A stretch of 56,484 nucleotides of DNA from contig DITJ01000091.1 in assembly GCA_002422795.1 (NCBI GenBank), positions 1 to 56,484 of the forward strand, written 5' to 3'. The notes below the pieces were generated by a model. The model was given only the letters and a program-made list of their open reading frames with translations, had not been told where the DNA came from and searched no databases. Below, piece by piece: positions 42,697-45,717 of this stretch. The translations under genes and the position numbers were made by a program. The first letter of the stretch is position 1. Every line of letters starts with the position of its first letter. This DNA comes from Alphaproteobacteria bacterium UBA6187. Its GTDB lineage: Bacteria; Pseudomonadota; Alphaproteobacteria; Rickettsiales; UBA6187.

Positions 42697-45600
42697 TTAA
42701 GTTAAGTTACTATAGTTTAGCCCCACACCAGCACGAGTAGCGTACTGCGACTCACGCAATCTTCTCACGTGTTCCCCTTCAGACTTTCCATCCACACCAT
42801 CCGTCAAGTCACCAACACTTTTAGATCGTAGACGCCCCACAAATTCACCTGTCGTTGATGTACCCATATTTATATCATCTTGCGATTTCACAATTTTATT
42901 TCCATCATTTGCTACACTACTTTCATCGCTAATAGCATCCCCACTCCCATTACGTTGATGTTTCAAATTTCCTAAAAGGTTAGCTCCCTTAAAAGTAGGC
43001 ATCGGAGACAAAACTGATGGTGAAACATCTGCAAGTTCGTATACTAAACTATGACTTTTTTTAAATTTATTTACAGGAGTATTAAATCCAGAATTCATAC
43101 CAGTTTGTTTTTCTTTACCAGATATAATATCCATTAGTTCCATATGAATATTAAAATAATCACTCAAGCACTCCACTTCATCTCTCGTTGGTGTGACATC
43201 TGTTCCGGCGATTCCTCCACTACTTACTTTATTATCTTCATCTTCGGAACTTGATTCATATTGATATTGGCTATTATCACGCATCACTGCTTCATATTGA
43301 GAAATCATACATTGAAAAAACCTTATTTCTTCCGCCTGTTTATCTGCATTTTCTTTATACACTGCTATCTCAGTTTTATATCTTTCTATTTCTTTAATAT
43401 AACCAGCAAGTTTTTCTTCAAGATTTGATATTCTTGAAGAATATGGACTATCCCCTGAATTTTCATCTACAACATCATAGCTTATAAATGATTCTAAAGA
43501 TTCTTCATCCACTCCTTCACCTTTCAAGGATGGCTTTCGCGAAGCAATATTTCTAACCTCATCTAATATCACAGCTGGAAAAGAATTTTCTTCCTCCACA
43601 TATCCTTTTAGTTTTAAATCTGATTCCTCTAATTGTGACTTTAAATCGCGCACCTGCTGCGTTAATTCATCATTCTGTTCTATTAATTGATTAACCTCAT
43701 ATGCTGGGGCCCATGTAGTAGAGCCGCGTCTTTTAGGCTTTGTTTTTTGTCTTTCTTGCTCTAATTCCTGGGTTAACAGGGCATTTTCCTGCCTCTCGAA
43801 ATTCGCTTTTTCTAGTGCGGCAAGCGTTATATCCTCAAAAGATTGAGAAGGATCAATGTCCCAACTAAAGCTTGCAAGTCCTACTATTAAACGTTCTCTT
43901 TTCTCTTTAAATTCAGCAAGCATGGAGTTTGCTTGCGCTAGTTTACTCTCCATTTCTATTTTAGCTTGTTCTTGCTTTTGTACCTCTCTTCTCGCTTCAT
44001 CAAGCTGCGCTTGCAACGCATCTTGCTCGCGTCCTAAGTCACCATTAAGACTCTGAAGCCTTGATACTTCACTTCTAACTGAACTAAGATCCCTTTTCAC
44101 TGTAGAAAGTTCAGATGCTAACAATGAACTCTCACCTTGCGCTCGTTCAGTTTCTTGCTTTGCTGCTTCAGTTTGCCTCCTGGCTGCATCACGTTCTTCA
44201 GATAATTTTCTGTTTGCTGCTTCAAGTTCTTGCGCACGTCTATTAGCTTCGTCTTTCTGTTCATGAGCTGCTATTAAATCTTGGTCCGCTTTCGCTACCA
44301 AATTATTCGCAGCTAAAAGTTCCTCCTCCGCTTTTCTTTGAGCAGCAAGCGCAGCTTTGATACGTCCACTTGAATCTTTATTTTCTGCTACAACATCATT
44401 AACTCTTTGCAATTGCTCCGCAGCAGCATCAAGTGCGGCATTATCCCGCTCAATTTGAAGCTCACGTAAACTTACCACTTCAAGCCTAGCCCGTTCTACA
44501 TCTTTCCTTGCCGCTGTAAGGTCATCACCTAAATCTCTAACCTGCCTCTGTAAATCACTATTCTCTGTTTGAAGTTGCCCCCGCCCCGCAAGTGCCTCAT
44601 CCCTTTCACGCGCACTTTCCTGCGCTGCATTTCGGAACCCATCTCTTTCACTAGTAGCCGTAGCAATCTGACCATTTAAAGCATGATTACCTTGTTCTAA
44701 ACTACCCTTTTCCCTTTCCAGCCTAGCCCTTTCTCGCCTGGCTGCTTCTGTCACCGCCGCTCTTTCCTGCTCTGCCCGCCTACTTTCTTCTTCCGCGCGC
44801 TGCCTTGCTTGCTCTGCTGCAATTCTCCTTGCCTCCTCATCAGCACGCAGCCTTTCAGTTGCTTGCTGGTCAATTATTGCCTGATCTCTCTGTTGTGCTA
44901 AAAGTTGTGCCTGTGCTTGCGCCACTCTTTCCTGCGCCTCTGCCGCGTTTAATTGTTGATTTGCTGCCGCAAGGTCATTTCCGTGCCCCGCCTGCAAAGC
45001 CTGCATCTGTTGCTGCAAGTGCGCATTGCCAGCCACCGCATTATTTGCCCTACCCCGCTCATCTGCTAATAATGAGTTTGATTGACGCAATTGCCTTTGG
45101 AAGCTATCCCTTTCCGCCCTTAGCGCCTGTTTATCCGCAGATGCTTGTAGTTTATTGGAATCTAAAGTTCCTGCTATAGAATTTGCGCGCTGCGATTCTT
45201 TAGCAAGATTCTGCTTTAACTCTTCCGCCTGCCTGTTTGATTGCTCAAGCTGCGCCTTTAACGCCTTTTCTTGCTGGTTTGATTGGTTATCTTTTTCTTT
45301 AAGCTGTTTTTTCAGCCCTTTTTCACTATCTGATAAAATCTTTATCGTTTGTTTTTGTTCAGAGATTTCTTTTACATGCTGCTCATTCTTCACCGGCTGG
45401 CTTTCTTGGGAGTTTTCAAGGATTTTTTTTGTAGCAACTCCGCTAACTACCGCACCAGCTATAGCTATCGCAGCAAAACCAATCGCAACAGGCAACAGGT
45501 AAACACTTAGCGCACAAAAAAGACATGCACCAGCTAACAAAATAGACTCAGTATAGCTTAATTTAGGTAGTCTACTGAATATAGAGGTTTTTTCTTGACC

Positions 45601-45717
45601 GGAAATACTATCATCAGGGTTAGCATCAGTTTTTTCATTGCCCGGAACATTCGGACGCGACGAACTGTTTGCCGCTGCCGCACTCATAATATCCGCATCG
45701 CCCGGTGGCACTGCCAT
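42697..45717 (-). CDS. Giant coiled-coil protein with N-terminal bilobed hydrophobic anchor (no recognisable family)
   Basis: 1006-aa uninterrupted ORF. Residues ~55-95 form a ~40-aa double hydrophobic segment (ILLAGACLFCALSVYLLPVAIGFAAIAIAGAVVSGVA). About 600 aa rich in Q, E, R and A with a heptad-like pattern follow, then a Ser/Asp/Glu-rich tail. Confidence 0.7.
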   Translation of the reverse strand: MAVPPGDADIMSAAAANSSSRPNVPGNEKTDANPDDSISGQEKTSIFSRLPKLSYTESILLAGACLFCALSVYLLPVAIGFAAIAIAGAVVSGVATKKILENSQESQPVKNEQHVKEISEQKQTIKILSDSEKGLKKQLKEKDNQSNQQEKALKAQLEQSNRQAEELKQNLAKESQRANSIAGTLDSNKLQASADKQALRAERDSFQRQLRQSNSLLADERGRANNAVAGNAHLQQQMQALQAGHGNDLAAANQQLNAAEAQERVAQAQAQLLAQQRDQAIIDQQATERLRADEEARRIAAEQARQRAEEESRRAEQERAAVTEAARRERARLEREKGSLEQGNHALNGQIATATSERDGFRNAAQESARERDEALAGRGQLQTENSDLQRQVRDLGDDLTAARKDVERARLEVVSLRELQIERDNAALDAAAEQLQRVNDVVAENKDSSGRIKAALAAQRKAEEELLAANNLVAKADQDLIAAHEQKDEANRRAQELEAANRKLSEERDAARRQTEAAKQETERAQGESSLLASELSTVKRDLSSVRSEVSRLQSLNGDLGREQDALQAQLDEARREVQKQEQAKIEMESKLAQANSMLAEFKEKRERLIVGLASFSWDIDPSQSFEDITLAALEKANFERQENALLTQELEQERQKTKPKRRGSTTWAPAYEVNQLIEQNDELTQQVRDLKSQLEESDLKLKGYVEEENSFPAVILDEVRNIASRKPSLKGEGVDEESLESFISYDVVDENSGDSPYSSRISNLEEKLAGYIKEIERYKTEIAVYKENADKQAEEIRFFQCMISQYEAVMRDNSQYQYESSSEDEDNKVSSGGIAGTDVTPTRDEVECLSDYFNIHMELMDIISGKEKQTGMNSGFNTPVNKFKKSHSLVYELADVSPSVLSPMPTFKGANLLGNLKHQRNGSGDAISDESSVANDGNKIVKSQDDINMGTSTTGEFVGRLRSKSVGDLTDGVDGKSEGEHVRRLRESQYATRAGVGLNYSNLT

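Follow-up and report, generated by a model that had tools for sequence, protein, structure and literature searches.

Several unrelated bacterial proteins join a hydrophobic hairpin near the N-terminus to a long coiled coil. TipN, the new-pole landmark of Caulobacter crescentus, places a large cytoplasmic coiled coil after two N-terminal transmembrane (TM) helices and is of limited phylogenetic distribution (PMC4085708), and GPR, the growth-pole ring protein of Agrobacterium (RgsE in Sinorhizobium), carries two N-terminal TM helices ahead of a very long, continuously helical cytoplasmic domain (PMC8262873). A similar layout is found in translocated proteins: chlamydial inclusion-membrane proteins (Incs; for example, IncA) and the Legionella Dot/Icm effectors LegC2/YlfB, LegC3 and LegC7/YlfA, which are Q-SNARE mimics. 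N-in/C-in topology is predominant among TM effectors of type IVB systems (PMC12981334). The gene described here encodes an orphan protein of 1006 amino acids (aa) and lies on contig DITJ01000091.1 of Alphaproteobacteria bacterium UBA6187, all 56,484 nucleotides (nt) of which were analysed (the window). Judged from its sequence, the gene is real, and its predicted product combines a hydrophobic hairpin anchor with a helical rod of great length; this layout is the one known from the four systems above, and the protein belongs to none of these families. The likeliest reading, which we hold at about an even chance, is that of a lineage-restricted, fast-evolving inner-membrane hairpin protein whose cytoplasmic rod would act as a scaffold or tether. 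The parts of the gene and its predicted protein are the following.

42697-45717, minus strand: coding sequence of the 1006-aa orphan protein, with its stop codon at 42697-42699
45547-45717, minus strand: polar, Ser/Ala/Pro-rich, putatively disordered N-terminus, aa 1-57 (composition; no secondary structure in AlphaFold2, predicted local distance difference test score (pLDDT) 32-43)
45427-45546, minus strand: bilobed hydrophobic hairpin with flanking residues, aa 58-97 (hydropathy; Pro76 at the turn, KK directly after)
43261-45381, minus strand: segmented alpha-helical rod, aa 113-819 (AlphaFold2 helices and heptad test)
44710-44859, minus strand: charged E/R/A segment, aa 287-336 (composition; without heptad signal)
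43123-43596, minus strand: acidic, Ser-rich part, aa 708-865 (net charge -22; holds the last coiled-coil block and an SSSEDED stretch)
42700-43122, minus strand: disordered, slightly basic C-terminal tail, aa 866-1006 (141 aa, pI 8.9)

The open reading frame (ORF) is intact and begins with ATG, preceded by an in-frame stop two codons upstream and by a Shine-Dalgarno sequence (AAGG) 8 nt before the start. The chance of 1006 codons staying open, computed from the base composition, is about 1e-27. The same protein occurs, without a single difference, in a matching gene neighbourhood on a metagenome contig in ENA, and again on a short Logan contig with galE alone.

The initial annotation had described this ORF as a polar N-terminus followed by a double hydrophobic segment, and both stand. 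Kyte-Doolittle (KD) averages over 19 residues exceed 1.2 only within aa 52-101. The first lobe, ILLAGACLFCALSVYLL (aa 59-75), has a mean KD of 2.48 and the second, VAIGFAAIAIAGAVVSGVA (aa 77-95), one of 2.30; in this hydrophobic stretch of 38 aa, the two are parted by a single residue, Pro76. These values are comparable with those of 46 hydrophobic peaks in membrane proteins of the same window (YidC, NtrY, Wzc, CNNM, an LPG-synthase-like and a PgpA-like protein), whose median KD is 1.88 (range 1.62-3.18). Because the lobes are as hydrophobic as the inner-membrane helices of this genome, co-translational insertion into the bacterial membrane would be their default fate. Basic residues precede (R50/K53) and follow (K97/K98) the hairpin, which, together with a turn that has no polar loop, fits an N-in/C-in topology; this orientation is predicted from the flanking charges, and the hairpin supports placing both termini on the same side of the membrane. 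Residues 48-110, searched as part of a terminal fragment (window 45328-45717), gave a sub-threshold match to Pfam DUF5423 (E 0.01, 15.2 bits, cut-off 25), a lead only that may be purely an effect of hydrophobic composition; no paper returned by a literature search mentions DUF5423.

Beyond the hairpin, about 700 aa are predicted as segmented alpha-helix with significant heptad periodicity. Residues 101-700 consist largely of Ala (15.5%), Glu (12.8%), Gln (12.2%), Leu (10.3%) and Arg (9.8%). AlphaFold2 places a helix at aa 55-100 after a disordered stretch (aa 1-54), then long helices at aa 113-223, 234-351, 380-445 and 450-615, shorter ones at aa 627-657, 672-707, 759-819 and 845-865, and almost no structure from aa 866 onward. 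Both models were made without an alignment and are of low confidence (pLDDT 53 for the full protein, 51 for aa 616-1006); they agree on this layout and consist of helices and disorder only. Compared with within-window shuffles, 49% of the windows that begin at aa 101-780 have a heptad a/d signal of z at least 2, with peaks of 5.2-5.5 in those starting at aa 379 and 540, against a mean z of 0.04 in the tails. The periodic blocks cover about aa 113-245, 323-434, 456-630, 666-728 and 729-819. A coiled coil of some 600 aa had been proposed; its heptad-periodic helical nature holds up, and it extends to about aa 819 rather than 700. Within the rod, aa 287-336, of which a 28-aa block (aa 309-336) is 61% charged, is a candidate single alpha-helix spacer of the ER/K type. 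The acidic, Ser-rich C-terminal third of the initial annotation corresponds to aa 708-865; the last 141 aa are slightly basic instead and contain an Arg cluster, HVRRLRESQYATR, 13-25 residues before the end. No internal repeats were found within the protein.

The centre of the gene has a GC content of 0.50-0.53 compared with 0.41 for the whole window, so that the GC-rich middle pointed out earlier is real. A reading of it as foreign DNA was rejected. The GC excess sits in codon position 1 (0.67 in the GC-rich centre), while GC at third positions (GC3) is 0.33 there, below the GC3 typical of window genes; for the gene as a whole GC3 is 0.30, at the low end among window genes. The rise in GC is thus explained by the Ala, Glu, Gln and Arg content of the rod.

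Searches for relatives returned the query alone, both in a word-indexed search of 5.8 billion clusters with the full protein and in an exhaustive phmmer (HMMER) search of 1.84 billion representatives; no homologue was found among about 15 billion proteins. A word-indexed search with the C-terminal 317 aa, a scan of GTDB genomes and PADLOC gave no match, and the best hit among PDB sequences was Homer (E 0.58, not significant). Foldseek found nothing in the PDB at E<=0.001 for either AlphaFold2 model. Pfam and NCBIfam contain nothing above family thresholds, in keeping with the earlier remark that no catalytic motif is recognisable: neither a catalytic nor any other domain was detected. Sub-threshold profile matches were confined to the coiled-coil part (CENP-F_leu_zip in Pfam, 17 bits; SMC_prok_B, 23.9 bits against a cut-off of 567), PHROGs gave weak coiled-coil matches including the tape measure phrog_1533 (23.9 bits), and Pfam searches with aa 1-130 and 616-1006 yielded, at E<=10, nothing but coiled-coil or hydrophobic matches below threshold. 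No homology to a housekeeping cytoskeletal or division protein of free-living alphaproteobacteria was found. A survey of 80 alphaproteobacterial dapB loci and 80 galE loci from metagenomes revealed no gene order in common with the window, no similar ORF and no similar architecture.

A diverged freshwater strain keeps the gene and gives a view of its rate of change. The freshwater run contains 44% of the 31-mer words of the neighbouring galE and phosphoesterase genes, compared with 5% of those of the 1006-aa gene. In galE, the strain and the window are 96-97% identical at the nucleotide level, with 18 synonymous and 4 non-synonymous differences listed (pS 0.107, pN 0.007, dN/dS about 0.06). The 5' half of the 1006-aa gene aligns at 88-90% identity, whereas in the 3' half only patches of 30-40 nt can be aligned at >=80% identity. 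The gene shows 20 synonymous and 36 non-synonymous steps (pS 0.134, pN 0.069, dN/dS about 0.49), so that its pN is about 10 times that of the adjacent galE; the contigs of the diverged strain have a depth of 2-4, the differences itemised lie away from contig ends, site counts for dN/dS are approximate, and the alignable parts are biased towards conservation. Two indels of the diverged strain, 21 additional nt near 44959-44995 and 123 letters in place of 6 at 44417/44424 (+117 nt), are multiples of three and keep the frame. The best-conserved stretch, 45341-45469, covers the second lobe and the juxtamembrane part and is 97.7% identical, and I59L is the one replacement listed within the hairpin. 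We read this pattern as selection on the frame and the anchor, with a rod that evolves fast. Such fast evolution of the rod would explain the lack of a detectable homologue in relatives whose ClpA is 13-19% diverged.

In the preferred reading, helices aa 59-75 and 77-95 would fold back at Pro76 and insert into the inner membrane as a hairpin. A hairpin turn without a polar loop, flanked by basic residues, would leave both the 57-aa N-terminus and the 900-aa C-terminal part in the cytoplasm. The latter would form a segmented coiled coil, probably a parallel dimer, with hinges and one highly charged spacer resembling a single helix; at 0.15 nm per helical residue, the tip of a fully extended rod could lie as far as about 100 nm from the membrane. 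The acidic, Ser-rich region and the disordered tail may serve as the partner-binding end, and the protein, like TipN or GPR, as a landmark, spacer or scaffold by which other components would be positioned with respect to the membrane. From these features we infer the topology, the oligomerisation, a location in the bacterial membrane and a role as scaffold. A rod tolerant of change next to a conserved anchor would be expected if selection acts on the anchor and on generic properties of the rod, not on a specific fold.

Compared with the described systems, the protein shares with TipN an alphaproteobacterial origin, the N-terminal TM pair and the large coiled coil. It differs in that phmmer, which returned the query alone, revealed no similarity (an indirect result, the TipN sequence itself not having been compared), and in the absence of flagellar, par or division genes near the gene. 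With GPR/RgsE it has in common two N-terminal TM helices and a very long helical domain; however, GPR has 2115 aa, about 75% of which falls under Pfam apolipoprotein domains (PF01442), and PF01442 was found neither in the full protein at E<=1 nor in aa 1-130 and 616-1006 at E<=10. Incs resemble it in that a polar N-terminus is followed by a bilobed hydrophobic domain (about 40 aa, minimal turn) and by a coiled coil facing the cytosol, in having no catalytic domain and in their rapid, lineage-specific evolution; aa 59-75 and 77-95 have the form of the bilobed domain by which Incs are recognised (about 40-60 aa with a short turn). Here, however, the organism is alphaproteobacterial according to DapB and ClpA, not chlamydial, the protein matches no Inc family in Pfam and has no homologue, and the window holds no type III system and no cluster of paralogues. 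Most Incs are far shorter than 1006 aa. The LegC proteins, with one or two N-terminal TM segments ahead of a coiled coil, share this layout, yet Pfam and phmmer gave no homology to them and no SNARE-like domain. We know of no Dot/Icm system in this lineage.

The flanks of the gene contain the following features.

45718-45849, unstranded: spacer upstream of the gene, towards galE (with 15.2% GC poorer in GC than any other spacer of the window; repeat remnant at 45835-45853)
45780-45807, minus strand: sigma-70-like promoter candidate (ATTACA, 16 nt, TG-TATAAT; 10/12 matches, a consensus match only)
42034-42696, unstranded: downstream spacer toward the convergent dapB, filled by nested palindromic repeats resembling miniature inverted-repeat transposable elements (MITE-like)
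42677-42714, unstranded: end portion of a short palindromic repeat that reaches over the gene's stop codon and final 5 codons

The gene is thus bordered, as described before, by repeat clusters and by an extremely AT-rich upstream region. One short repeat family, with members at 42332-42353, 42550-42571, 42692-42713 and 45835-45853, brackets the gene and its AT-rich promoter region; the copy at 42692-42713 supplies the last 5 codons of the gene, and the remnant at 45835-45853 lies directly past the galE stop codon. In the freshwater strain, a contig that leaves galE at 45827 enters 35 nt matching 42336-42370, which indicates a fuller copy of the repeat there. The gene could have been inserted or remodelled by these short elements, or the elements could merely favour gene ends. 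Within the downstream spacer, the palindromic motif GGATTGCCACGTCAGCTTCGCTTCCTCGCAATGACG (window 42492-42655) has a word depth of about 3900 in runs from hydrocarbon metagenomes, compared with about 3 for the flanking DNA, and is therefore shared with far more abundant genomes of the sample; a related copy lies at 4545-4699. At least three more MITE-like palindromic families occupy intergenic spacers of the window, among them a 165-nt element with two full copies (5920-6084 and 36283-36447, 96% identical) and partial copies at 17088-17140, 21870-21932 and 38136-38186, as well as the pairs 4238-4321/13567-13720 and 10510-10592/16785-16856.

At low depth, DNA of the window is present in a 2013 hydrocarbon metagenome (tailings) and in freshwater and river metagenomes, the coverage of the river samples being too low to inform on the gene. 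The best matches of DapB (57-58% identity) belong to assorted Alphaproteobacteria, and a neighbour-joining tree of DapB groups the window with low-GC metagenome-assembled genomes (MAGs), one of them labelled Rickettsiales; this weak grouping may have a compositional cause. Logan, JGI and NCBI data contain ClpA relatives of 81-87% identity, on contigs of 40-43% GC, like the window; the closest ones with a name, at 71%, come from MAGs under the labels 'Rickettsiales bacterium' and 'Alphaproteobacteria bacterium'. Where ClpA is 84-86% identical, the contigs are syntenic with the window only over clpS-clpA-GGDEF, so gene order is poorly conserved in this lineage. Athabascaceae and Mitibacteraceae, basal families of Rickettsiales, include MAGs from aquatic samples such as tailings water and are predicted to be free-living, yet they have the rvh type IV system (PMC9352585; PMC11077975). 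Given the hydrocarbon-metagenome source, the 'Rickettsiales' labels and the tailings water from which some of the published MAGs came (PMC9352585), these families are a candidate home of the contig, as a lead only.

The genes of the window include leuA, etfAB, corC, trkA, ntrYX, dusB, ispDF, nadE, mepA, pepF, rpmH-rnpA-yidD-yidC, a subtilase gene, clpSA, comM, dapB, galE, Wzc/Wza genes, a BBP2 porin gene and pta-ackA. Such a content, with genes for biosynthesis, regulation and exopolysaccharide export, is that of a metabolically competent bacterium. The 56 kb hold no secretion system, no ATP/ADP translocase or other host-dependence gene, and no paralogous hairpin proteins. Three further ORFs, at 35064-36251 (minus strand, 395 aa), 24027-24593 (plus strand, 188 aa) and 4825-5904 (plus strand, 359 aa), match neither Pfam nor PHROGs; of these, the 395-aa ORF shows the window's lowest GC3 (0.22) and is rich in Gly and Cys in its moderately hydrophobic middle, and the 359-aa ORF has a TM helix at its end. 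The S8 subtilase (750 aa, 27146-29398, plus strand) has an N-terminus resembling a signal peptide and a C-terminal third ending in VTFDFKF, which looks like the terminus of an autotransporter or outer-membrane barrel. Apparent spacers at 16306-17113 and 24840-25450 hold small genes, namely rpmH, rnpA, yidD (5' of yidC), an IscA/ErpA-like gene and a gene for a 90-aa protein with a C-terminal TM helix; counting them raises the coding density to about 87%, from 84% for ORFs of >=120 aa alone.

The design shared with TipN and GPR, the hydrophobicity of the hairpin and the lack of any sign of host dependence together make a resident scaffold facing the cytoplasm the likeliest role of the protein. 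Several observations weigh against it. None of the RNA runs searched contains the gene, and no flagellar, division or par genes lie nearby; the gene's neighbours are dapB on one side and, on the other, galE with genes for polysaccharide export. So fast a change and so complete a lack of homologues would be extreme for a core scaffold, considering that ClpA relatives at 81-87% identity are present in the same databases, and both traits are more typical of proteins that face a host or the environment. The long stretch of N-terminal disorder and the tail with its Arg residues would be in keeping with secretion signals, and the hydrophobic anchor is itself compatible with export, since type IV systems can export even strongly hydrophobic TM effectors through an inner-membrane intermediate (PMC11602083; PMC12981334). 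Moreover, the nearest labelled relatives are 'Rickettsiales bacterium' MAGs, and Rickettsiales carry the rvh type IV system even in free-living basal families (PMC9352585).

The main rival is a translocated TM effector of the Inc/LegC type, most plausibly exported by an rvh/VirB-type type IV system, which we consider unlikely, at perhaps half the weight of the scaffold. Its hairpin would sit in a vacuolar or organelle membrane of a protist host or in the membrane of a target cell, possibly after passing through an inner-membrane intermediate. Both ends of the protein would lie in the cytosol of the host, and there the coiled coil would act as a tether or imitate trafficking proteins of the host. 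In architecture it matches chlamydial Incs and Legionella LegC2/3/7, including the N-in/C-in topology predominant among the type IVB effectors (PMC12981334). Its status as an orphan among about 15 billion proteins speaks for this reading too, as do a pN of 0.069 against 0.007 in galE at similar pS, the in-frame indels and the 5% of its words found in a run holding 44% of its neighbours' words. The disordered first 57 aa and the Arg cluster close to the C-terminus, the gene's own very AT-rich promoter region, the mobile-looking repeats on both sides and the labels of the nearest relatives fit as well, and the sub-threshold DUF5423 match of aa 48-110 is at most a lead in this direction. On the other side, the window shows neither a secretion system nor an ATP/ADP translocase or host-dependence gene; paralogous hairpin proteins are missing from it, while Incs are usually numerous and clustered; the protein has no Inc or LegC homology and no SNARE-type domain; the metagenomes come from bulk water or tailings and have no link to a host; and basal Rickettsiales families are predicted to be free-living (PMC9352585). 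Since TipN and GPR have the same architecture and stay in the bacterium, the layout is not diagnostic of Inc-type effectors. The initial annotation, which proposed an Inc-like host-interaction factor, is accordingly supported only in part: the analogy of layout, the orphan status and the fast change remain, whereas the architecture does not discriminate, the GC argument fails, and no secretion or intracellular-lifestyle genes occur in the window. The narrower proposal of an Inc/LegC-like effector from a deep-branching, Rickettsiales-related environmental lineage, delivered by an rvh-type system into the membrane of a protist or a competitor, is somewhat less probable still.

The same rate of change could also come from a young or weakly constrained gene that has no specific role, is held open mainly by its low-complexity helical composition and drifts nearly neutrally, perhaps brought in or remodelled by the flanking repeats. 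A dN/dS of about 0.5 in the alignable parts, a 3' half mostly unalignable at 80% identity between strains whose galE is 96-97% identical, the lack of homologues, a stop codon and last 5 codons derived from a repeat element, and a GC3 of 0.30 at the low end of the window would all suit such a gene. Yet 1006 codons have stayed open in a 41% GC genome at a chance of about 1e-27, both indels of the diverged strain are multiples of three, dN/dS is below 1, the anchor region is conserved like galE, the heptad phase is held over hundreds of residues, and a plausible promoter and a Shine-Dalgarno sequence are present. Because frame, heptad phase and anchor are all maintained, we rate this explanation low, clearly behind the effector. 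A divergent member of a known coiled-coil family (SMC, phage tape-measure, CENP-F-like or apolipoprotein-like of the GPR type) is hardly credible at all. Such membership would draw on the weak profile matches (SMC_prok_B and phrog_1533 at 23.9 bits, CENP-F_leu_zip at 17), which concern the coiled-coil part alone and lie far under cut-offs (567 bits for SMC); it was rejected, as the scores are sub-threshold, neither the ATPase head and hinge of SMC nor PF01442 is present, no phage genes lie nearby, and Foldseek found nothing at E<=0.001.

Hairpin-anchored giant coiled-coil proteins are of two functionally opposite kinds, resident scaffolds (TipN, GPR) and translocated effectors (Incs, LegCs), and the present case shows that architecture alone cannot separate the two. 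On present evidence, the 1006-aa protein is one more orphan structural protein, and an example of a sequence orphan from a little-known alphaproteobacterial lineage, the nearest labelled relatives of which are called Rickettsiales. Should it be exported, it would inform on how host manipulation began in this group: hairpin-anchored coiled-coil effectors would have arisen independently outside Chlamydiae and Legionellales, and the protein would offer a handle on the use of secretion before or at the transition to host association. If resident, it would be a third, unrelated case of the TipN/GPR design, which would then appear as a recurrent solution for membrane-anchored cytoplasmic scaffolds.

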